NCBI GenBank assembly: GCA_964583985.1
Contig: CAZOYD010000003.1
Location: 1 to 64,000 of the forward strand
Direction of reading: 5' to 3'
DNA: 64,000 nt
From: an uncultured archaeon
GTDB lineage: Archaea; Asgardarchaeota; Lokiarchaeia; Sigyniarchaeales; SOKP01
Of this stretch, positions 3,306-23,996 are shown piece by piece. How positions within the stretch are numbered: the first letter of the stretch is position 1; each line of letters begins with the position of its first letter. Below the pieces are notes generated by a model. It searched no databases. It worked only from the letters and a program-made list of their open reading frames with translations, and was not told the DNA's origin. A program made the position numbers and the translations under genes.

Positions 3306-6158
3306 TTATGTAAAACTTAGGTCTTTTCTCATTTTTAAACGAATTCTATATTTTCTTAGCTCATCCACTACAGGAACGCTAAATGCCCCTAAAAACAATG
3401 TAATCCAGTAATAAGCATGAGTTAAAGGCACAACACGGAATGCGATCCCTATTGGCGTGAAAATAATCAAAAGTTGTAATCCAAGTGATAAGCTCGTAGC
3501 CCAGAATAGGTGTTTGTTAGGAAATAGATAAAATGGTTTTATGTTTGAAGTACAAGTAAATACAAACATTAATTCGCAAATAACTAAATTCGTAAAAAGG
3601 ATTGTTTGGGCCAATGAAATAGAATAGAAATATGCATCAGTACCGTGCGTCATATAATCCAAGGTTAGTAAAGGATCTATTCCCGATTGAGCCCAAGCGG
3701 GAATAAGAACTGTCCAAAGTAATAAATAGAGTGCAATATCCGTTAATGAAGTATAAATGCCTAAGAATAAGACAGGACCTTTAATCTCTTTTATTAAAGT
3801 AAATCCTTCCCTTGGTTTTTGTTTCATGACATCTGGATCTGAAGGTGTTAAGCCAAGCACCATGGCAGGAATACCATCTGTGGCTATATTTAACCATAAA
3901 ATTTGAATTGGTTCTATAGGGAGTCCGATAAAAATATTAGTAAATAATTTCATTACAATATAGGCAAACACAATCAAGAAAAGTTCATCAAAATTCGTAC
4001 TTAACATGTAACGAAAAAACCCTTTAGTTGTTTCAAATATTCCTCTGCCTTCTTCTATAGCATTAACAATTGTAGCATAATTATCATCAATCAAAATCAT
4101 ATCAGAAGCTTCTTGTGTTACTTCAGTTCCTTTCAAGCCCATGGCTACCCCTACGTGAGCGCCCTTTACTGCTGGAGCATCATTTACTCCATCTCCAGTC
4201 ATTGAAACAATCATACCTAATTCTTTTAATCTTCGTAATATTCGTAGTTTATGTTCAGAAGTTACTCTCGCAAACACATCTACAGTTTTCACTTTTTCTC
4301 TTAGCACGTCATCACTCATTTCTTCTAATTCAACGCCAGTAATTGCTTCATTTGATTCAGTTAGTCCGATCTGATGCGCAATTGCCATTGCGGTAACTTT
4401 ATAATCTCCCGTAATCATGATGGTTCTGATACCCGCTGATCTAGCTTCACGGATTGCATCTTTTACTTCATCTCGAGCGGGATCAATAATCCCTACCAAT
4501 CCAATATATGTAAAATCATTCTCAATTTCTTCGAGGATGTAATTTGGTTCCAATTCTTTACACGCAACCCCTAATACTCGTAGAGCGCTTTTAGCGAAGT
4601 TGTCATTTTGTTCTAAAATTTTAGATTTAAAACTTTCAATAGGTTTTTGTTCTCCGTTTATTAAGATTGTTCCCGCTTTTCGCATTAAAACATCAGGTGC
4701 TCCTTTAATAAATGCATAAATTTTTCCATCAATTTTACCAATGACCGTCATCATCTTTCTGTCTGAATCAAAAGGAATTTCATCCAATTTTTCAAACGAT
4801 TCATTAATTCCTCCTTTTAAGGCTAGTACCTTCATTGATACTTCGGTTGGATCCCCTACAATGGATATTTCTCCCGTGTTTTCATTGATAATATTAATGT
4901 TAGAGTTGTTGCAATACATACATACTTCAAGGAATCTCTTCAATTCAGTATCTATGGGTACGATTGTTTGATTATCCTTAATCTTTCCTTTAATATTATA
5001 ACCGATACCTTCCACTTCAAAGACTTTATCATAAATATAGATTTTAACGACGGTCATTTCATTTTTAGTTAATGTTCCTGTCTTATCCGAGCATATAACA
5101 TTCACCCTTCCTAAAGTTTCTACCGCCGTTAAATTACGAACAAGAGCATTTCTATCAGCCATTTTTCGCATACCAATACTCATTACCACTGTAATAACCA
5201 CTACAAGTCCTTCAGGAACAGCTGATACGGCAAGACTTATTGAGATTTTAAATGCTTCCACAATTTCTTCCACTTCGCTCACTGAAAAAACGAGTCCTTC
5301 TGTAGAAATAATAAGGATAAATTCAACAACGAAAATAATAACACATAAGACTATTATAATAATCCCCAATAATTTCCCGAAACGATCGACTTCCTTTTGG
5401 AAAGGGCTTGGCTCAATTTGTTCTTCTTGTAAACTTACTGCTATTTTACCTATTTCAGTATTCATTCCTGTTCCAATTACAATGCCCTCACCATTACCCC
5501 GAGTTATGATGGTGTTCATATAGCCTAGATTGGTTCGATCTGCTAGAATTTCTTTCTTATCAACAACCTTCAATTTTTTTTCTACTGGTTTTGATTCTCC
5601 AGTTAAAATTGCTTCATCAACGTAAAGCGAGAATTTTTTAAAAATTCGTACATCAGCGGGAAATTTATCACCTTCTTCAAATAAAATAATGTCACCAGGA
5701 ACTACATCTTCGACTGCAATTTGTAAGACTTTATTACTTCTTCGAACTCGAGCAAAATGAGGAGCTAACTTATTGAGACTCTCCATGGATTTTTCAGCTT
5801 GATATTCTTGATAAAATCCTAAGATTGCATTGATAATTAGAATTGCTGCAATTACGATAGCATCCGTATATTCAGAAGACCATGGTTCTGCTCCTGGTCT
5901 AGAAGCCTCCCAAATCCCAATAATTAATGAAACCGCAATCGCAAAAAACAATAAATATATTAGAAAATCCTTGAATTGAGCAACAAAAATTTGCCAAGCG
6001 GTTTTACTTTTTTCTTTAATTAATTCATTTCTACCATATCTCTCTAATCTCTGTTTAACCTCACTCTCTGAAAGTCCTATAGTTAGATTTGTTGCTAATA
6101 ATTCAGCAACTTCATCAACCGGTTTCGAATGGGCACTAATTTGTTTAAGATCTATCAT
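3306..6158 (-). CDS. P-type IIA (SERCA-like) cation, probably Ca2+, ATPase, copy 2
   Basis: TGES, VPEGL, DKTGT, KGAP, TGD, GDGVND; M6 QILWLNIATDG. Confidence 0.93.
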   Translation of the reverse strand: MIDLKQISAHSKPVDEVAELLATNLTIGLSESEVKQRLERYGRNELIKEKSKTAWQIFVAQFKDFLIYLLFFAIAVSLIIGIWEASRPGAEPWSSEYTDAIVIAAILIINAILGFYQEYQAEKSMESLNKLAPHFARVRRSNKVLQIAVEDVVPGDIILFEEGDKFPADVRIFKKFSLYVDEAILTGESKPVEKKLKVVDKKEILADRTNLGYMNTIITRGNGEGIVIGTGMNTEIGKIAVSLQEEQIEPSPFQKEVDRFGKLLGIIIIVLCVIIFVVEFILIISTEGLVFSVSEVEEIVEAFKISISLAVSAVPEGLVVVITVVMSIGMRKMADRNALVRNLTAVETLGRVNVICSDKTGTLTKNEMTVVKIYIYDKVFEVEGIGYNIKGKIKDNQTIVPIDTELKRFLEVCMYCNNSNINIINENTGEISIVGDPTEVSMKVLALKGGINESFEKLDEIPFDSDRKMMTVIGKIDGKIYAFIKGAPDVLMRKAGTILINGEQKPIESFKSKILEQNDNFAKSALRVLGVACKELEPNYILEEIENDFTYIGLVGIIDPARDEVKDAIREARSAGIRTIMITGDYKVTAMAIAHQIGLTESNEAITGVELEEMSDDVLREKVKTVDVFARVTSEHKLRILRRLKELGMIVSMTGDGVNDAPAVKGAHVGVAMGLKGTEVTQEASDMILIDDNYATIVNAIEEGRGIFETTKGFFRYMLSTNFDELFLIVFAYIVMKLFTNIFIGLPIEPIQILWLNIATDGIPAMVLGLTPSDPDVMKQKPREGFTLIKEIKGPVLFLGIYTSLTDIALYLLLWTVLIPAWAQSGIDPLLTLDYMTHGTDAYFYSISLAQTILFTNLVICELMFVFTCTSNIKPFYLFPNKHLFWATSLSLGLQLLIIFTPIGIAFRVVPLTHAYYWITLFLGAFSVPVVDELRKYRIRLKMRKDLSFT

Positions 6159-6362
6159 TTTTAATCAATTTTTTCAGAATAATAAGAAAATGTTTAATTT
6201 AGTAAAAAGTAAAATATTAAAGTTATTATTTTTATAATTTATAAATTTAAAGTGTAAGACTTCTAAACGTGAAATAAAGAAAAATTGAAAATAAAGTCTA
6301 AAACTTTAATTTTATTATAATTAAAAGATGAAAAAATGTTAAAACTATCATTAAAAAAAAAA

Positions 6363-9248
6363 TTATGAATTCCTATGAAAATCTGTTAATCTTTCTTGCC
6401 AATATGAGTCTTTTGCTCTTTTCCTTCTTACTAAATATTTTCTTGTTTCTTCCGCTGGAACGATAAATACAGAGCCAAGAAATATAGCTGCCCAATATTG
6501 CCAATGAACCAGTGGGACAACGTGAAAAGCAACACCTAAAGGGGTAAAAATGATAACTACATGTAAGATGAATGATATACCCGTGGCCCAAATTAGATGT
6601 TTATTTCTAAACTCCCATAAAGGTCTATATTCTGATGTGCAAGAAAATACAAAGAAGAGTTCAAAAAATACCACATTTGTGAAGACTATTCCTTGAGCAA
6701 CCGCAATTTGATATTGTTCTGCAGTATAAGATATTCCAGACCATAAATTCGTAACTCCCGAATTTAAATAAGGATCAAACCCTTCGCTTGCCCAGACTGG
6801 GATCAAGGGATTCCAGACAAGAACATATAAAAGTACGTCGGTGATTGCAGCAAAAATTGCAGCAAAAAGAATCGCTTTCTTAATATCACTAATCATATTA
6901 AATCCTTTTCGCGGTTTAAATTTCATTACTTCTGGATCTGTAGGAGTTAATCCTAATACCATTGCTGGAATGCCATCGGTGGCAATGTTAAGCCATAAAA
7001 TTTGAATTGCTTCAAGAGGTTGGGCTAGATAAATGCCTATCGTTATTTTCATTAGAATCCATGCCGTTAATATTAAAAAGATCTCATCAAAATTGCAGCT
7101 AAGCATATATCTAAAGAAACTTTTAGTGGTTTCAAAAATTCCGCGACCCTCTTCAATTGCATTTACAATCGTGGCATAATTATCATCGATGAGGATCATG
7201 TCTGCTGCTTCTTGGGTAACTTCCGTGCCTTTCAATCCCATTGCGACCCCAACATTTGCTCCTTTTACTGCGGGAGCGTCATTTACGCCATCTCCTGTCA
7301 TTGCTATTATGTCTTGTTCAGATTTTAGGCTTTTAAGAATACGCAATTTATGTTCTGATGTTACTCGCGCAAATACATCAACAGTTGCAACTTTTTCACT
7401 CAATTCAGTATCACTCATCTCTTCCAGTTCTTCCCCTGTTATCGCATTGTCATTATCAGTTAATCCTATCTGCTTTGCAATGGCGATCGCTGTCACCTTA
7501 TGATCTCCCGTAATCATGATCGTTCTGATGCCGGCCATTCTTGCTTCTTGTACCGCATTTTTTACTTCATCTCTTGCTGGGTCAATTATTCCAACCAATC
7601 CTAAAAATATGTAATCTGTTTCTGCTTCGTCCTGAGAATAATCGTTGTTCAAAGGTTTATATGCGACACCTAGTACTCTCAGTGCTTCTTTTGCATATAG
7701 GATATTCTGATTTTGAATTTGTTTGGCTACTTCCTTAATTGGTACTTCTTCTCCATTCATCAGACCTTTTGCTGCATTTTTTAACAAAACATCGGGTGCT
7801 CCTTTTATATAAGAAAAGTAATTTCCATTAATTTTCATTATGACAGACATCATTTTTCTATCCGAATTGAAAGGTATTTCATCAATTTTTTCAGCCTTGG
7901 TTTGAATGTTCATTTTCATTGCTAAAACTTTCATTGAAATCTCGGTAGGATCACCCACTACATCAGTAGCGCCGCTTTCTGGATCTTTGACATTCACATT
8001 TGAATTATTGCAGAGTAAACATACTTCTAAAAATCTCTGGAGGTTTGGGTTCATTTTTACCATATTTTCTTCATGATCAAGGATTTTTCCATTAACATTA
8101 TAACCAACCCCATCCACAAGATATTCAGTTCCATCCAAAAAAACCCTAATGATTGTCATTTCATTTTTAGTTAAAGTTCCTGTTTTATCGGAACAAATTA
8201 CGTTGACTCGTCCAAGCGTTTCAACAGCTGTAAGTGTTTTTACCAGAGCATTTTTATCAGCCATTTTTCGCATGCCAATGCTCATGACTACGGTAATAAC
8301 TACTACTAAACCTTCAGGAACCGCTGAAACCGCCAAACTTATAGCTACAGTTAATGCATTTATTATTTCATGAATTTCTTCAGGCTGAAATCCAGCACCC
8401 TCGAATAACACAATTATAATTAATTCTATTCCAAAAACTAAACCACAAACGATTAAAATGATTTTTCCAAGAAGTTTACCAAAACGATCTACTTCAATTT
8501 GAAAAGGACTTGGTTCTGGTTCCTCTTCTTGAATTTTCTCAGCAATCTTTCCGATTTCTGTCTTCATCCCTGTAGCTATTGCTATTGCTTCACCATTTCC
8601 TCTGGTGATAACAGTGTTACTATATGCAGTATTAATCCTATCAGCTAAAATCGTTTTTTCATTAACAATAACATTCTTTTTATGAACAGGAGCAGATTCT
8701 CCTGTGAGAATTGCCTCATCAATATATAATGAGTAAGCTTTTGTCAATCGTGCATCAGCTGGTAATTTATCTCCTTCATCAAGTAGTAAAATATCACCCG
8801 GAACAACATATTGTACTTCAATCTCTTTTACTATCCCTCCCCTTCTGACTTTTGCATTATGAGGTGCAAGTTTTTTCAGACTTTCTAATGCTTTTTCTGC
8901 TTTGTACTCTTGATAAAACCCAAGAATTGCATTTACAACTAAAATAATCCCAATTACTAATGCATCCAGAAATTCTGAAGGTTCTCCTCCCGAAGCTAAT
9001 TCATAAAAACCAACTAGGACAGAAACTGCAATAGCAAAAAGTAATAGATATACAAGAAAATCTTTAAATTGGTTTAAAAAGATTTGCCAAGGGGAAATTC
9101 TCTTTGTTTGTTCTAATTCATTCAATCCATAACTTTCAAGTCTCTTTTGAACTTCACTTTCGGTTAACCCATTATCTATTGAAGTATCAAGCGCTTTTAA
9201 AACATCATCAATTTCTAAAGCATGAGCTTTAATTTCTTTTAATGCCAT
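6363..9248 (-). CDS. P-type IIA (SERCA-like) cation, probably Ca2+, ATPase, copy 1
   Basis: Same motif set; close paralogue of the adjacent gene. Confidence 0.93.
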   Translation of the reverse strand: MALKEIKAHALEIDDVLKALDTSIDNGLTESEVQKRLESYGLNELEQTKRISPWQIFLNQFKDFLVYLLLFAIAVSVLVGFYELASGGEPSEFLDALVIGIILVVNAILGFYQEYKAEKALESLKKLAPHNAKVRRGGIVKEIEVQYVVPGDILLLDEGDKLPADARLTKAYSLYIDEAILTGESAPVHKKNVIVNEKTILADRINTAYSNTVITRGNGEAIAIATGMKTEIGKIAEKIQEEEPEPSPFQIEVDRFGKLLGKIILIVCGLVFGIELIIIVLFEGAGFQPEEIHEIINALTVAISLAVSAVPEGLVVVITVVMSIGMRKMADKNALVKTLTAVETLGRVNVICSDKTGTLTKNEMTIIRVFLDGTEYLVDGVGYNVNGKILDHEENMVKMNPNLQRFLEVCLLCNNSNVNVKDPESGATDVVGDPTEISMKVLAMKMNIQTKAEKIDEIPFNSDRKMMSVIMKINGNYFSYIKGAPDVLLKNAAKGLMNGEEVPIKEVAKQIQNQNILYAKEALRVLGVAYKPLNNDYSQDEAETDYIFLGLVGIIDPARDEVKNAVQEARMAGIRTIMITGDHKVTAIAIAKQIGLTDNDNAITGEELEEMSDTELSEKVATVDVFARVTSEHKLRILKSLKSEQDIIAMTGDGVNDAPAVKGANVGVAMGLKGTEVTQEAADMILIDDNYATIVNAIEEGRGIFETTKSFFRYMLSCNFDEIFLILTAWILMKITIGIYLAQPLEAIQILWLNIATDGIPAMVLGLTPTDPEVMKFKPRKGFNMISDIKKAILFAAIFAAITDVLLYVLVWNPLIPVWASEGFDPYLNSGVTNLWSGISYTAEQYQIAVAQGIVFTNVVFFELFFVFSCTSEYRPLWEFRNKHLIWATGISFILHVVIIFTPLGVAFHVVPLVHWQYWAAIFLGSVFIVPAEETRKYLVRRKRAKDSYWQERLTDFHRNS

Positions 9249-9672
9249 AATTAAATCATGTGTTGATCAATTTTTTTTATTAGACTAAATTTTTATATCA
9301 CATAAAATGGAATATCCTAAAAAAACAATTGTAGTGATTATTGTTTTAAAATATACCATTCAGAAAAAGCAATTAATTATATCTTCTGATAACAAATAAA
9401 CAATCAATTGATCAAATTAGTTGTAGTTATTTCCATTACTCCTCTACCTTCTTGATTTGAGACCATTTGTGGAAACGATGTAGAATTAATTGAAAATTTG
9501 TGTGTGGGCTCTAACTTTTTTCATTACTACCACATACTTTTTTTGTTAATATTAAATTTTATGGGAAATAACCTAAATTTTTTAGGTTTTCTTTTCATTA
9601 TTTATAAAATAAAATATTATGCAAAAATATTTCAGGTGATAAAATTTTAAAATAACATTTTCAGATACTGCA

Positions 9673-9993
9673 ATGGACTATATTCGTGAACAGAATAAAA
9701 ATTTTGAAGAAAACAGTTTGGAAAAAAAAGTCATCGTTCTATTTTACCATTCTTCTGAATCATGACTTCTTTCATTCTGTGGTAACGTTGTGGAGTTGAT
9801 AGAATACAAAAAAGTAATGGATGATATGGATTTCATAATTTGGACTGATGAGACAACTGATACTTTAGGGACTCAAATATACATTGAGAATAAAATTATA
9901 GAAGAACTAGAGCAAAATTCTGTTATCCAAATCAACGTTGCATTAGGTGAAGTCAAGGGAGAAAAAATTGGGTTCTTGTTTATGAATACATGA
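9673..9993 (+). CDS. Candidate selenoprotein, HesB-like / CC-Se-motif-like fold, in-frame TGA at 9763-9765
   Basis: Frame is open 9643-9990 except for one TGA: (NFKITFSDTA)MDYIREQNKNFEENSLEKKVIVLFYHSSES-U-LLSFCGNVVELIEY...LGTQIYIENKII...; SECIS-like hairpin in the 3' UTR; true start uncertain. Confidence 0.65.
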
Positions 9994-9999
9994 GATATA

Positions 10000-10109
10000 A
10001 CATGACAAAAAATGAACTTATTCTAGCGAGTTGATCACATTCTGTATGAGATGATAAACAAGCTAAAAAATGAGAGAATAAGTGATTTACGGTTGCTTCC
10101 GTATCATGT
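10000..10109 (+). ncRNA. Putative eukaryote-like SECIS element (cis-acting, 3' UTR)
   Basis: AUGA (10012-10015) followed by ACUUAUUCU, which pairs perfectly with AGAAUAAGU (10075-10083), followed by GAU; outer stem ACAUGA/UCAUGU; lies just after a gene with an in-frame TGA. Confidence 0.6.
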
Positions 10110-10192
10110 AAAAATAGTATTGGTACAAGTAAATTTATAAAGAGTCAATCTTATTTAATTGATAAATTATCTAAAATAACACAAATTCTATT

Positions 10193-10765
10193 ATGAGAAT
10201 CAGTAGAGTTTTTCGTTGGAGTGTTAGAATATTTCTGTTAATATTAACACTATCTCTAACTGGAGTTTCTATTCTCGGGAGTATGTCGGCATTCGCAATT
10301 CTTGAGAATCCAGATAATGTAAACGTACCTTCAGGACCAATTAGTGCAAATTTAAACATTTCAGACGTAAATTCAATGTATCTTCAAGTCCCTTTCAATG
10401 TTTCGAATGTAGGTTTTTTTGATCTCACTAATTTGAAAATAGAATTTAGTATCGCGATGATTTATGATCATGTTAATTTAACTGGAACTGGAGAAAATGT
10501 CACAACAAGTACTAATATATTTAATAAAGCTATAAATTTTCCCCCTATACCTCATGGACAATCTTATAATGGTTTATTTAATGCTGCAAGTGGAGATGGT
10601 TTTCTTCCTGCTAATTTTCCGAATATAACAACAGAGATTGATTGGTATAAAACTCCGCATGCTATTGAATTTTATGCAGATTTTATATTCAGTGCTTCCT
10701 ATTCTCTTGATCTTATTTCTTTTACAGTAAAACTATTCAATATAACAGTGGGGCATCTTCCATAA
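10193..10765 (+). CDS. Membrane-anchored extracellular beta-rich hypothetical protein
   Basis: N-terminal hydrophobic helix, several N-x-S/T sequons; first of three closely spaced genes. Confidence 0.7.
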   Translation: MRISRVFRWSVRIFLLILTLSLTGVSILGSMSAFAILENPDNVNVPSGPISANLNISDVNSMYLQVPFNVSNVGFFDLTNLKIEFSIAMIYDHVNLTGTGENVTTSTNIFNKAINFPPIPHGQSYNGLFNAASGDGFLPANFPNITTEIDWYKTPHAIEFYADFIFSASYSLDLISFTVKLFNITVGHLP

Positions 10766-10778
10766 AGGTGATATCATT

Positions 10779-11276
10779 ATGGGTGCAACGAAAAATATCT
10801 TTAAAGGAATTTTATTCACCAGCATATACTTAACTACTACAATAATCTTACCAAGCATAACTTTCTCTTGGGTAAAAGATTTATCAATTTTGGGAGTTCC
10901 CATTGTAATGAGTCAACTTGAATATGAAAGAATTATTTTTTGGATTTCAGCGTTTGGATTATTGATAAGCGGCTGTGCTTTCTTTAATTATAGTTCACCA
11001 AAGCAGTCAATTAGAAAGGCCATATTCGCCTTAATTCAAATCATTCTCAATTGTCTTTATATTTGGAGTTATAAATTTTCAGGAGCAACAGAAGTTAATT
11101 TTACAATCTTTACTATTGGGTCCCTTTCTATCAATTTTTCACAGATGATTTTGTTATATATGGGGATATATTTTTTAACAATCCTGCTTAAAATATATGA
11201 TTTGATTGATTTTACCTTGAATCGTAAAAAGATAAGAGAAAAACGCTATTTAAAAAAAGGAGAGAATCTAAAATGA
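10779..11276 (+). CDS. Hypothetical membrane protein (about 4 TM)
   Basis: Hydrophobic segments; SD-like AGGTGA upstream. Confidence 0.75.
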   Translation: MGATKNIFKGILFTSIYLTTTIILPSITFSWVKDLSILGVPIVMSQLEYERIIFWISAFGLLISGCAFFNYSSPKQSIRKAIFALIQIILNCLYIWSYKFSGATEVNFTIFTIGSLSINFSQMILLYMGIYFLTILLKIYDLIDFTLNRKKIREKRYLKKGENLK

Positions 11277-11653
11277 TATTACAAGTGTTAGATTTCTTAC
11301 AAGCTTTTGCAGAGATTATTGGAGTAATTTTAACCTTTTTAAAACCTGTCGTTTCTCCGATTGGTGCTTGGATGGTAGAATGGATTGACGTAGTTTTGGG
11401 GGTATTCCCTGAAAATTCGCTTGCAATGTATGTAATAATTTTCATTACATTGATCGTTATTGGAGCGATTGTTAACTCTCTATGGACTGGAGATACCCCT
11501 CCTAAATTTTTAGCTAATAAAGGCAAATATGCAACAATCTCTGATGAGAAATTAAATGAAGTTGAGAAAATTGAAGAACTAGCAAAAATATCGGCAGATG
11601 ATGATAATAGGAACATTAATTCTGATAAAACAAAAATTCTAGATGATGATTAA
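11273..11653 (+). CDS. Hypothetical membrane protein
   Basis: 4-bp ATGA overlap with the upstream gene; hydrophobic segments and charged tail. Confidence 0.7.
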   Translation: MILQVLDFLQAFAEIIGVILTFLKPVVSPIGAWMVEWIDVVLGVFPENSLAMYVIIFITLIVIGAIVNSLWTGDTPPKFLANKGKYATISDEKLNEVEKIEELAKISADDDNRNINSDKTKILDDD

Positions 11654-11676: not shown

Positions 11677-12303
11677 TTATTTTCCAAATCTTTTCAGTAG
11701 TTCTGCTACTCTTCTACCTAAATCTTTGGCGATTTTTCCAGCTAATTCATCTTCTTCACCTTTTCCGATGAATTCCTTTAATTTGTGTTTTTGTAAACTA
11801 GTAATCGGGATGTTTCCCTCTAACACTGGGCTTCCTAATGCGTTTCCAACCACAATCATTCCATGTATCAATGCAAAATTTATAAGATCAGCAATAACAC
11901 CCTCACCTCCGTTTCTTAATCCTGTAGCAGCCAATGGCGCAAATATTACATCTTTTAACAAATAATTCTTCATTTTCCAAGGGCGGGATCGATCTATTAA
12001 TGTTTTAATTTGGGAACTAACCGAACCAAAATAATTTGGAGCCGCAATTATGAGAGCGTCAGTATCAAGTACTAAATCTTCAATTTTGTTAGTATCATCA
12101 TTCTCTGCAAGAGGACAATTATTAGGAGGTCTAAGGCAAGCATCACAACCATTACAAGGGGTAATGTTATAATCAGTTATGAAAATTTTATTCAATTTAA
12201 AATCCGTTGAGACCTCCTTTATTCCTTCAATAACTTTGTCAATCAAAAAATTTGAACTCTTATTTTTTCTTGGGGAACCCACAATAAGACAAATTGTTTT
12301 CAA
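11677..12303 (-). CDS. Iron-sulfur flavoprotein / NADPH-dependent FMN reductase (flavodoxin-like)
   Basis: GSPRK, CNGCDACLRPPNNC (CxxCxxCx5C), APNYFGSVS..KTLIDR. Confidence 0.88.
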   Translation of the reverse strand: MKTICLIVGSPRKNKSSNFLIDKVIEGIKEVSTDFKLNKIFITDYNITPCNGCDACLRPPNNCPLAENDDTNKIEDLVLDTDALIIAAPNYFGSVSSQIKTLIDRSRPWKMKNYLLKDVIFAPLAATGLRNGGEGVIADLINFALIHGMIVVGNALGSPVLEGNIPITSLQKHKLKEFIGKGEEDELAGKIAKDLGRRVAELLKRFGK

Positions 12304-12400
12304 ATCAATTATCCCTTTTATTATGATTTTAATAATTTATTAAATACGCGATATCAAATTTAAATTTGCGAATAATCTACTAATATTAATAAGAATATAT

Positions 12401-13153
12401 TTGAGCAACAATAATTGGGTATTGAGCTCAATGGAAATTAGATATAGAAATAAGAAAGATTTATTAGATGAATTAAAAATACATAAAGAATTAGCTATAA
12501 AGAAGATAAATCAACAAGATTTAGGTACTGCCCTAAAAAAGGTCAAATCTGCTATTATTTTAATTGAAGAAGCTCAAGATTATTTAGATTTGGATGATGA
12601 GTTGGAAGAATTTCATCAATTAAACCAAAAAATAATAGATGAAAGATTAAGTCATCGGGAATGGTATTTGAGAAAATATAATAATCTTTTAAAAGAAAAT
12701 CTAACGGAAGAGAATCTCGAATCTTTTTTAAAACTTCTTGCAATGTTGAAAGATGAAGTAGATGGAGTTGTAAATAAATTCAATTTAGAAGATGTTCAAT
12801 TTCATATTAACTCCTATTTTAAATACCTGAGAAAAGTTTATGGGATTATTAGTTCCTATAAAATCTTAGAATTTAGTAAAGCGTCTCATCAAATACTAGG
12901 ATTTGCTAAAGAAATTCGTCCCGAAAATTTTAATAACCTAAAAGCCCTAACATTATCACTCTATCGTAATTTAATAACAAATAAATTACAAGAAATTTCG
13001 AAACTTCAAAATCGTTGTCATTTGAATGAGCTGTGTGATAAGTTAGCCATTTCCAATGAGGATTTATTTAAAATTTTTGATTTACTTGAAGAAAACCCTC
13101 AAAACCCAATTGAAAGGTATAATCGAAAAACTCAAGAAATTTTGTTCAAATGA
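12401..13153 (+). CDS. Helical hypothetical protein with possible C-terminal PCI-type winged helix
   Basis: All-alpha charged sequence ending LNELCDKLAISNEDL...IERYNRKTQEILFK; start may be ATG 12431. Confidence 0.6.
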   Translation: MSNNNWVLSSMEIRYRNKKDLLDELKIHKELAIKKINQQDLGTALKKVKSAIILIEEAQDYLDLDDELEEFHQLNQKIIDERLSHREWYLRKYNNLLKENLTEENLESFLKLLAMLKDEVDGVVNKFNLEDVQFHINSYFKYLRKVYGIISSYKILEFSKASHQILGFAKEIRPENFNNLKALTLSLYRNLITNKLQEISKLQNRCHLNELCDKLAISNEDLFKIFDLLEENPQNPIERYNRKTQEILFK

Positions 13154-13154
13154 A

Positions 13155-14078
13155 TTATAAACCACGATAGGATTCAGATCGGAGCACATCTTTATGAGAT
13201 ATCCCATAATTAAGGATTTCTAAAATTTCTTTCTTATCCTTTTCAAGGATTCCTTTGATAGGAAGGTAATTACTAGCATGATTGCTCCTGAATACACAAT
13301 TCGCTTCTTTATTTGGGAAATTAATGTTTTCAATAAAAGTTCTTAATTCTTTAAGAATATCAATAGCACTCATTTCAATGAACTTATGATTCCGTTTTTT
13401 TTCATATAGTACAGTGCCCTGTGGGATCATTAATGATAAAAAAGAAATATACCATAATCTATCATCGCTAGGACATATCTTGTTAACTAAATCAGCAGAT
13501 TTTATGGCATGATTATTGGATAGATTCTGGTTATTCGCGCCTCCCAATCCATTAATAAACGTTGCAGATAAAGTGATTTTTGCATCCATTAACTTTCTTG
13601 TAGCATTGATATAATCCTCTTTTGTTGCATTTTTCCCGATTTGTTTCAATAAATTATCATCACCAGATTCAAATCCAACATAAGCTATTTTTAACCCAGC
13701 ATCTGAAAGGTCTTTTAATTGTTTACCTGATTTTTTTAGAATATCCTTTGCATGAGCATAAACCCCAACTCTTTGAGCATTTGGAAATTTATTCATTGCA
13801 TATTTTGTAATTTCTAATAATTTTTCAGTAGGAGTAACCATTGCGTTTCCATCCAGAAAAAATATTTTTCTCACGTGAGAACCATATTTTCTATTTGCGA
13901 CATCTAGATCTTTTTTGACATCTTCTAAATTCCTAACCTTAAAATCCTTTCTCAGATTCGAAACGCAAAAATCGCAATGATAAGTACAACCTTCTGTTAA
14001 TTGAATCAACAGAGAATTCCCTTCTGAAGGAGGTCTAAATACGGGATAGCAGTAATAAATCGATGAATTTTCTACCAT
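13155..14078 (-). CDS. Radical SAM protein
   Basis: RPPSE..SLLIQLTEG followed by CTYHCDFC (CxxxCxxC); YVGFESG; SNHASNYL. Confidence 0.92.
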   Translation of the reverse strand: MVENSSIYYCYPVFRPPSEGNSLLIQLTEGCTYHCDFCVSNLRKDFKVRNLEDVKKDLDVANRKYGSHVRKIFFLDGNAMVTPTEKLLEITKYAMNKFPNAQRVGVYAHAKDILKKSGKQLKDLSDAGLKIAYVGFESGDDNLLKQIGKNATKEDYINATRKLMDAKITLSATFINGLGGANNQNLSNNHAIKSADLVNKICPSDDRLWYISFLSLMIPQGTVLYEKKRNHKFIEMSAIDILKELRTFIENINFPNKEANCVFRSNHASNYLPIKGILEKDKKEILEILNYGISHKDVLRSESYRGL

Positions 14079-14912: not shown

Positions 14913-16451
14913 TTAAAAATTATAAGAGATTGATTCGAGGTCATCGATTATTTTTTGTCTGAGAGAGTTATGTGAGACACTTGGTAATAGCTCTTCCAAT
15001 ATATCTCTCAATTCGATAATTTTTTCTTTTAATAATTCTGGTTTACTCCATAATGACTTTCGAAGGGGATGGATGTGGATCATTGCTTTATTATAATTTT
15101 CTATGGATTCTCTATAAAAAAGACAAGCACTATCATAATTCTCCAATCTGGTATGATATATAGTTCCAATTTTGTTAAAGCACATGCCTGCTCCAGCATA
15201 ATCTCCAATTTTTTCAAATAAAATTGCAGCATCTTGGATTTTACTTAAAGCTAGTTTCAAGACATCATTTTTTCCATGTTTTAATAAGATATATCCAAGA
15301 ATATAACTTGCTACAGCTTTATAAAATGAATTATCCTGTTCTTCCGCTATTTTCATCAGATCGGTAGCAAATTCTTCTGCTAAGACTAAATGATTGCTCG
15401 AAATGCATAATTTAGTTAGATTTCGTAATAAATCTTGAATTCGATCAACGTCTTCCTCTTTCGTATAAATTTTTATTCCTTGACGATATTTTTCTACCCC
15501 TGTAAATGGATCTCTTTGTTGAAATGCTGTATTTCCTTCATATATTAGTTGTTCAGCTTTTTCTATATCATCGACAATTTTAGTTTTACCATAACTTGAT
15601 TCATCCCAAAAAAGGTTATTGAGATCAAATGAGACTTCATTTTTCATTGGAATATCTACTAAAGCTTCAGCGCCAAGTTGTGTATCAATTTCATTGGTCA
15701 TTTCATCTTGTACTAATTTTTTATTATCCTTTTCGCCATATGCTGATTGTAAAGGCTTTCCCACCGATACTAAAGCTGATAATTCAGATAAAACATTGGC
15801 AAAAAAATATTTATTAAGACCCTCTACAATATAATCGACTTTGTGATAATTGGTCTCATATTCGGGAGAATTAGGATCCAAGTTAACGTCAGTTAATCTA
15901 TATATTTCAAACCCTGTACTATATTTCGTTAAAAGATTCTCTCCAATTTTTTCTTCTTTTTTTTTACCTAATAAACTATGATCAAAAACTAGACCAATTG
16001 AATCATTAAATTTATTTTGAAATCCTAATTGATTTATAAGATCAACGTAAGAAAAGAATAATGAAAGGCCTGGATGTGAATGAAACCACCCAACAACGAA
16101 ATTACCCTTATTTTCTTCATACAATTGTTGTTCAATTTCATCTATGAAGATATAATGCCTATGATCCAATTGTACATCCGTATCATGACCGAATGTCAAA
16201 GCGAAAGCATTCTCTACATGAACAAAATCATCATCCACATATCCAACGAGGATCCCATAAATTTCTTTCCAATTAGCTGATGGTATCGCATGATTCGCAT
16301 ATCGACTTGCATACAGAATGATCGTTTTATATGCTTCTGCATTAATTATCACGGGTTTACCAGGATTTGCCTCTTTATTTTGTTTGGGTTGTTCATTTTT
16401 CTCAATATTTTTATGGACGTCTTTTCTGGACTTTTGATTTTCTTCAGACAT
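14913..16451 (-). CDS. JAMM/MPN+ metalloprotease (Rpn11/CSN5-like) fused to TPR/SNAP-like helical repeats
   Basis: EIYGILVG...VVGWFHSHPGLSLFFSYVD is an intact E...HxH-x7-S-x2-D motif; C-terminal helical repeats. Confidence 0.87.
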   Translation of the reverse strand: MSEENQKSRKDVHKNIEKNEQPKQNKEANPGKPVIINAEAYKTIILYASRYANHAIPSANWKEIYGILVGYVDDDFVHVENAFALTFGHDTDVQLDHRHYIFIDEIEQQLYEENKGNFVVGWFHSHPGLSLFFSYVDLINQLGFQNKFNDSIGLVFDHSLLGKKKEEKIGENLLTKYSTGFEIYRLTDVNLDPNSPEYETNYHKVDYIVEGLNKYFFANVLSELSALVSVGKPLQSAYGEKDNKKLVQDEMTNEIDTQLGAEALVDIPMKNEVSFDLNNLFWDESSYGKTKIVDDIEKAEQLIYEGNTAFQQRDPFTGVEKYRQGIKIYTKEEDVDRIQDLLRNLTKLCISSNHLVLAEEFATDLMKIAEEQDNSFYKAVASYILGYILLKHGKNDVLKLALSKIQDAAILFEKIGDYAGAGMCFNKIGTIYHTRLENYDSACLFYRESIENYNKAMIHIHPLRKSLWSKPELLKEKIIELRDILEELLPSVSHNSLRQKIIDDLESISYNF

Positions 16452-23084: not shown

Positions 23085-23996
23085 TTGATGACTAATAAAA
23101 TCCCACCTGACCAGATCGTAATAAGACCCCCAGTAGAAGCATATAGCGTGCTCATTGCTGTAACAGCTGGGTGTAGTTGGAATCGCTGTCGATTTTGTGG
23201 AACCTATAAGGGTATGTATCAAACCTCTCAGGATTATGCTATTCGCCCCTTAGAAGATGTATTAAAGGATGTTGATTTTTATGCTGAAAAGAATTATCAC
23301 GGATTTCCCGTTTTTTTGGCGGGAGGAAATCCAACATCAGCTCCAACAGATTATCTCGTAAAAATTATTAAACATGTTAAATCACGAATGAAAAATGTAC
23401 CAAGAATTAGTTGTTATGCTAAAGCTCTCGACATTTTAAGAAAATCTGATGAAGAACTTGGACAATTAGCTGAAGCAGGATTAGATATCGTATATATGGG
23501 ATTAGAGAGTGGAAGTAGCAAAATCTTACGATTAATGAAAAAAGGGACTAATGCTGAATCGATGATTAAGGCAGGAAAAAGGATACTGGCTGCAGGTATA
23601 AAGTTGAGTCTCTATATTCTCTTAGGATTAGGTGGAAAAGAATTTTCAAATTTACACGTAAGAGAGACTGCAAAAGTTCTAACAGAAATCAATCCAACCA
23701 TATTTAGATTTAGAACTTTAAATGTTTTGCCTTCTACTCCCCTTTGGAAAGATTGGAAACAAGGAAAGTTTGAATTATTATCTCCTGTTGAATGCATTAT
23801 GGAAGAACGTGAAATTATCGCGCAATTAGGTGAAAATGTAACCTCTCAAGTATTTAATGATCACATATCAAATTATGTTGGATTAGAATCTTCTAATATT
23901 CGAGAAGATAAAGACGTCTTTTTGAACTATTTAGATTTGTTGATAAATGATCCTAAAATCCAATCTTTGCCCAGGAAAAATTTAGAACATATGTAA
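23085..23996 (+). CDS. Radical SAM protein (same family as 13155-14078)
   Basis: RPPVEA..., CSWNRCRFC (CxxxxCxxC spacing variant), YMGLESG, DHISNY. Confidence 0.9.
   Translation: MMTNKIPPDQIVIRPPVEAYSVLIAVTAGCSWNRCRFCGTYKGMYQTSQDYAIRPLEDVLKDVDFYAEKNYHGFPVFLAGGNPTSAPTDYLVKIIKHVKSRMKNVPRISCYAKALDILRKSDEELGQLAEAGLDIVYMGLESGSSKILRLMKKGTNAESMIKAGKRILAAGIKLSLYILLGLGGKEFSNLHVRETAKVLTEINPTIFRFRTLNVLPSTPLWKDWKQGKFELLSPVECIMEEREIIAQLGENVTSQVFNDHISNYVGLESSNIREDKDVFLNYLDLLINDPKIQSLPRKNLEHM

Follow-up and report, generated by a model that had tools for sequence, protein, structure and literature searches.

The 64,000-nucleotide stretch of DNA from an uncultured Lokiarchaeial archaeon that we analyzed (the window) very probably gives rise to an expressed, selenocysteine (Sec)-containing protein of predicted IscA fold, which has stayed hidden because gene callers split it at its in-frame UGA. 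Its family would be an eighth Asgard selenoprotein family, of IscA fold and beyond the lists published in open-access main texts. New in the window copy itself are an inserted SECIS element and an unusual start-codon pattern.

On the forward strand, the frame from 9643 to 9990 is open save for one TGA at 9763–9765, in the context FYHSSES-U-LLSFC, and ends in a TGA stop at 9991–9993 (Table 1). The 67-aa ORF at 9790, a form also found in a public sequence collection, is only the tail of this frame, as the first-pass annotation of this DNA had recognized.

Table 1. Features of the selenoprotein locus and its surroundings; positions are those of the window.
Feature	Position	Strand	Remarks
Two tandem P-type cation ATPase genes	3306–9248	-	Divergent from the selenoprotein gene; conserved neighbors
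Shine-Dalgarno-like GGTGA	9635–9639	+	Position as in most orthologues, 3 nt before a TTG/ATG/GTG/CTG start
Selenoprotein coding frame	9643–9993	+	At most 116 aa plus TGA stop; non-canonical start; residues 2–10 under purifying selection
In-frame UGA (Sec41)	9763–9765	+	IscA Cys35 position; loop between strands 29–36 and 47–54
Cys46 of the U-x4-C motif	9778–9780	+	Kept in at least 90% of alignment A1
Predicted lower helix, 5' arm	10000–10005	+	Pairs with 10104–10109; kept in nearest relatives
lokiSECIS	10012–10085	+	AUGA 10012–10015; 9-bp helix 10016–10024/10075–10083; GA 10084–10085
Lineage-specific apical-loop insertion	10026–10065	+	+39 nt net, between direct repeats of CTA; A-run moved 3' of an added hairpin
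Short side hairpin	10088–10103	+	Directly after the GA core; recurs after nearly all lokiSECIS examined
Downstream conserved neighbors	11677–14078	-	Flavoprotein 11677–12303; radical SAM protein 13155–14078

The read-through protein had matches in 52 of the 134 genomes of the archaeal family, each with one internal TGA, the Cys paralogue excepted, and those database relatives that carry names belong to Promethearchaeota/Lokiarchaeota. At the aligned codon, alignment A1 (55 genes) held TGA in 53 genes, TGT (Cys) in 2 and TGG in none, and the sequence on both sides was conserved to the same degree, with pooled dN/dS over eight disjoint pairs of 0.13 for residues 2–40 and 0.14 for residues 42–116. 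These results support the earlier proposal of a Sec-containing protein with an atypical U-x4-C motif, whose homologues were expected to carry TGA or Cys in this column.

The decoding machinery, whose presence the first-pass annotation had named as a check, was found in the genome. The genes for tRNA-Sec, SepSecS and an EFSec-like GTPase share one contig; the GTPase, 4 kb from tRNA-Sec, scored 232.6 bits, slightly short of the cut-off for bacterial SelB. A PSTK-family kinase (KTI12/PSTK family) and a SelD of the UxxK type, on contig C24, are also present. SepSecS occurred in 128 of the 134 family genomes, yet 79 of 133 gave no match to the selenoprotein gene, which therefore looks dispensable.

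Database records might be taken to mean that the UGA is a true stop or a Trp codon of another code, as they treat each half as a hypothetical protein of its own and show Trp in some full-length entries; a sequencing error is a third option of this kind. We consider all three extremely improbable. The codon alternates with Cys codons and never with TGG, both halves are equally selected and form one fold, the gene itself terminates in TGA, for which a close relative has TAA, and independent contigs agree. Recoding to Trp was rejected because the "Trp" records proved to be TGA read under table 4 (3/3 with DNA). Sample X2, an independent salt-marsh run, holds positions 9450–10250 in a single contig with two SNPs, both lying away from the TGA, from the start region and from the insertion; since this contig agrees, neither the TGA, nor the missing start codon, nor the SECIS insertion is an assembly error. 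Contigs of other samples carry the same TGA, although sample X3 may be the source sample and all runs come from the same habitat and year.

Orthologues mostly start three bases after GGTGA or GGTGG. The homologous position in the window gene is AAT (9643), and its frame contains no ATG, GTG or TTG before the first ATG at 9673 (Met11). Among 42 orthologues, ATG, GTG or TTG occurs by residue 4 in 25, only later in 13, and nowhere before the UGA in 4; non-canonical starts (17/42) are common there alongside normal SECIS elements. Residues 2–10 form the first strand of the predicted model and had a dN/dS of 0.16, from few sites. We infer that translation starts by near-cognate initiation, for which ATA at 9652 is the best candidate. 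A +1 frameshift start, which would use a GTG at 9636 in another frame and shift at a TTT-TAA site, was considered and judged not to be needed, because the TAA simply results from Phe-Lys codons and an in-frame start exists in most orthologues. A scan for sigma-70-type promoters returned fewer sites than in shuffled sequence, this consensus being uninformative for archaea.

The SECIS described in the first-pass annotation, an AUGA 18 nt past the stop followed by a 9-bp helix and GA, has a fully paired helix. A perfect helix on AUGA and GA appeared in 5 of 5000 shuffles of the gene's 3' region. Over 31 family elements the helix was 94.6% paired, with compensatory changes at all nine pairs; pairing as high occurred in 0/500 shuffles, and slid registers did not come close. 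A covariance model of the family elements gave matches behind Sec genes, and the Cys genes tested had none behind them. Several distant Sec genes escape the model; when searched directly, most of these reveal the pattern and a few do not. Within the 64 kb, the window element was the only significant match to this model, and an Rfam search returned chance matches only. Scanning the genome for canonical lokiSECIS gave 9 matches, against 0–2 in shuffled genomes, and six of the 9 follow HdrA-VhuD, VhuU and PrxL. In four further loci (L005, L007, L009 and L026) the SECIS core reads AUGU or AUAA instead of AUGA, with UGA and helix kept.

The short hairpin right after the GA core was present in 30 of the 31 family elements and in 9/9 other SECIS-like elements of the genome. 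Such hairpins are singly only weakly above chance, and it is their recurrence that constitutes the evidence; the passages of literature covered contain no description of them.

The lokiSECIS consensus has an 11-nt loop with 5' adenines (PMC4989117). This adenine-opening loop is present in the relatives (11 nt in close relatives, 11–12 nt in other family members scored) and absent in the window allele, whose apical loop measures 50 nt. The insertion responsible was seen in several samples, and its origin as a mobile repeat was rejected, as it is single-copy in the genome. One alternative is that the family is real but the displaced adenines and the poor start have silenced or weakened the window allele, leaving a mostly truncated product. 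The window element indeed scored 42 bits with the covariance model, against 59–88 bits for intact family elements, and its two GA dinucleotides lie 68 nt apart, beyond the limit of the published Asgard search pattern (PMC11227280); the lack of a usual start codon before residue 11 points the same way. We nevertheless hold such decay to be rather improbable. The inner pairs of the core helix have pair probabilities of 0.98–0.99, and the AUGA, the GA, the closing AG, the A-run and the side hairpin are all intact. The frame has neither frameshift nor extra stop, and the gene's own branch, with about 19 synonymous vs about 15 non-synonymous changes, indicates purifying selection, which cannot date the insertion. 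The occurrence of the insertion in several samples and the non-canonical starts of orthologues with normal SECIS argue against decay as well. The predicted formation of its core helix makes it probable that the inserted SECIS is still functional. Asgard archaea have eukaryote-like SECIS elements without SBP2 (PMC11227280), and the window allele offers a natural case of loop insertion for the study of SECIS recognition, with nearly identical versions of 11-nt loop as controls.

Comparison supports the decoding of the UGA at 9763 as Sec by the genome's tRNA-Sec and EFSec, directed by the lokiSECIS in the 3' UTR, with the UGA at 9991, 18 nt from the SECIS, serving as the stop. The resulting protein of about 113–116 residues is predicted to adopt the IscA/HesB (A-type carrier) fold. 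Its model had a pLDDT of 88, with about 69 in the Sec-bearing loop (41–50), and its best structural matches were IscA/SufA and relatives (Z 7.9–8.1, rmsd 3.1–3.5 over about 90 residues), unrelated folds reaching Z 3.9 at most. A profile alignment placed the Sec column on IscA Cys35 (probability 62%); the A1 profile alone barely aligns with the E. coli carriers, and the wider A4 profile was used here. Fold matches and profile alignment together uphold the HesB/IscA-like layout that had been noticed from the letters. The match to PF01521 was weak (17 bits, below the Pfam cut-off of 26.3 bits), and a sequence search of the PDB gave no match. An annotation search for a natural Cys homologue yielded only leads below 0.9 (Fe-S_biosyn, DUF779 and CC_Se). 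In the model and profile alignment, Sec41 occupies the site of IscA's first cluster ligand, and Cys46 stands at the beginning of the next strand.

Comparison with IscA/SufA/ErpA (PF01521, TIGR00049) shows differences beside the shared fold: identity is 10–16%, the C-Xn-C-G-C pattern is lacking, and the gene is not in an isc or suf operon. The C-terminal CGC of IscA is absent from the window protein, which means that two of the three IscA ligands are missing and that the first position alone persists, occupied by Sec. The Sec41/Cys46 pair would therefore be the only reactive site. DsrR of Allochromatium vinosum likewise has an IscA fold (Z 6.8) and an incomplete ligand set, and differs in being bacterial, free of Sec and tied to dsr genes; by a title cited in PMC11406059, it is reported to bind neither iron nor Fe-S.

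Profile searches placed the protein below the cut-offs of both TIGR01911 and NF041239, so that its resemblance to HesB-like and CC/Se proteins did not extend to membership in these catalogued families. TIGR01911 proteins, from Methanococcales and anaerobic bacteria, have an IscA-related fold and Sec at the first IscA cysteine, and neither family has an assigned function; the Methanococcus maripaludis HesB-like selenoprotein is without one, for example (PMC11097638). Their motif is UxGP, against U-x4-C (U-L-L-S-F-C) in the window, and their SECIS is of the methanogen type rather than a lokiSECIS. The window gene gave no match to TIGR01911, and the best of its family (E of about 1e-3 to 1e-4) remained far below the cut-off of 66.35 bits. 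CC/Se proteins (NF041239/PF28096) are also small and of HesB type, and weak matches to them were obtained with 6/55 genes of A1 and 12/34 of A4. Whereas the window protein itself had no match and none of 399 Asgard genomes exceeded the cut-off, one distant Asgard member reached 38.5 bits (cut-off 40), and a near relative of that member carries PF28096. The CC/Se motif is CxxU (or CC) and bacterial only (PMC13188914), as opposed to U-x4-C with a 3'-UTR SECIS in the window family; a U-C-G motif occurred in distant relatives only. Intermediate Asgard sequences link the window family to CC/Se, and these distant members would make CC/Se its nearest connection.

The known lokiSECIS families are SelD, FrhA/VhuU, HdrA, FrhD/VhuD, PrxL, an AhpF-N homologue and a DsbA-like protein (PMC4989117, PMC11227280). 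The window family shares with them the AUGA, the 9-bp helix and the GA close behind the stop, and known families with canonical elements also occur in this genome. Its fold differs from those of all seven. The survey of more than 400 Asgard genomes that gave seven selenoprotein families used only known families as queries (PMC11227280). The word "HesB" does not occur in the main texts of PMC4989117 and PMC11227280, and the open-access main texts of the 2016 and 2024 surveys and of a 2026 review contain no HesB-fold Asgard family.

As to function, we tentatively favor, at somewhat short of an even chance, a reduced A-type carrier, probably dimeric, that would bind iron or an Fe-S cluster and would supply clusters to clients such as aconitase or repair theirs. 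An aconitase gene adjoins the selenoprotein gene in about 11 genomes, on the opposite strand, and is absent at the window's own locus. Further points for an Fe-S role are the radical SAM neighbor, the 11677–12303 product (an FMN-reductase-fold flavoprotein with a Cys cluster), the lack of any canonical A-type carrier above the Pfam cut-off in the genome, and the Cys-rich loops of paralogues. Against it stand the two missing ligands, the example of DsrR as an IscA-fold protein reported not to bind Fe-S, and the placement of aconitase and neighbors on the other strand.

The missing CGC ligands also fit a role independent of Fe-S binding, as a small oxidoreductase or redox switch, in which Sec41 would attack a disulfide, persulfide or peroxide and Cys46 would resolve the product as a selenenylsulfide bridging the tip of the hairpin. 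We regard this as possible and nearly as likely as the carrier, with metal or selenium handling third. Subfamilies A and B both retain Cys46 five residues past Sec; in distant members a Cys instead follows Sec immediately or stands at the C-terminus, as would suit a resolving Cys. Redox functions are presumed for the majority of prokaryotic selenoproteins (PMC13188914). However, the second Cys is absent in the Cys-only paralogue C and in some distant Sec members, and the conserved neighbors of the window's subfamily include no thioredoxin-like partner.

The most constant neighbors, at 46 loci, are the divergent P-type ATPases. A metal or selenium accessory tied to them, whose selenolate would bind a soft metal or carry Se or S, would agree with this constancy and with the Cys-rich loop variants. 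These ATPases have Cation_ATPase_N/C domains and are not of the heavy-metal type, and we find such a role quite improbable. Members outside the genomes of this family have other neighbors, so the synteny with the ATPases may be only inherited gene order. Between the selenoprotein gene and the flavoprotein lie three small membrane-protein genes without Pfam family (10193–11653, +), which stay together downstream in most relatives, and a JAMM-motif protein fused to helical repeats is encoded at 14913–16451 (-).

Returning to the carrier, the fullest version of our proposal combines an Asgard-wide, uncatalogued family of A-type carriers, in which selenium acts as a ligand and U-x4-C replaces the three Cys, with a lokiSECIS that works despite the 39-nt insertion and the displaced adenines, so that the kink-turn core together with the 3' side hairpin would carry recognition. 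As a whole we think it unlikely to hold in every part.

The family comprises three types: A (the window gene, U-x4-C-G), B (S-U-S-x-x-x-C) and Cys-only or Cys-rich forms, the last often in tandem and, in the Cys-rich paralogues, with several Cys in the Sec loop. Cys-only forms cluster together inside the Sec-containing clade of a tree that is short and partly unresolved, and this nesting suggests a change from Sec to Cys with loss of the SECIS. With wider profiles, members were found in 95 of 399 Asgard genomes, mostly with TGA and including other orders and classes. Relatives with both UGA and SECIS occur in a 6,035,313-bp genome, apparently that of the cultured Loki-B35, which would make Sec incorporation directly testable. 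Tandem Sec-Cys-Sec paralogue arrays were seen at L031:4583–5920 and L032:5328–6695 (both -) and at L068:4400–5970 (+); in the last array the loop of the middle gene is Cys-rich, and the element of the third gene is without AUGA.

The Asgard selenoproteome appears to be undercounted, as two further unlisted candidates lie in the same genome. Two other loci drew attention. On contig C123 an AIRS-domain gene (L124, 4325–4675, -) has an in-frame TGA in an insert-like stretch, with no SECIS seen, and is possibly an intron-bearing or broken gene; it was rejected as SelD, which sits on C24. On contig C9 a SECIS-like element at 23491 (L123, +) lies 30 nt beyond a gene for a small membrane protein whose only in-frame TGA is its stop, and this may be an orphan element, a case of C-terminal Sec, or chance. 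The first of the two candidates (L122:963–1160, +, contig C52) is a 66-aa protein with a single membrane span, the motif G-G-G-U-G-C and a lokiSECIS at its stop; 14 genomes of the genus yielded matches to it, each with one TGA. Its G-G-U-G motif may resemble the tails of eukaryotic SELENOK/SELENOS. The second (L121:649–1092, +, contig C126), a putative selenoprotein judging from its sequence, is a 148-aa frame in which two TGA stand side by side (H-A-D-U-U), followed by a lokiSECIS 28 nt past the stop; it has no Pfam match, and matches to it were found in 116 of the 134 family genomes, nearly all with two TGA. In five of its loci (L140, L141, L142, L146 and L147) an Ile codon stands at the start Met of other members, which fits frequent near-cognate initiation in these archaea.
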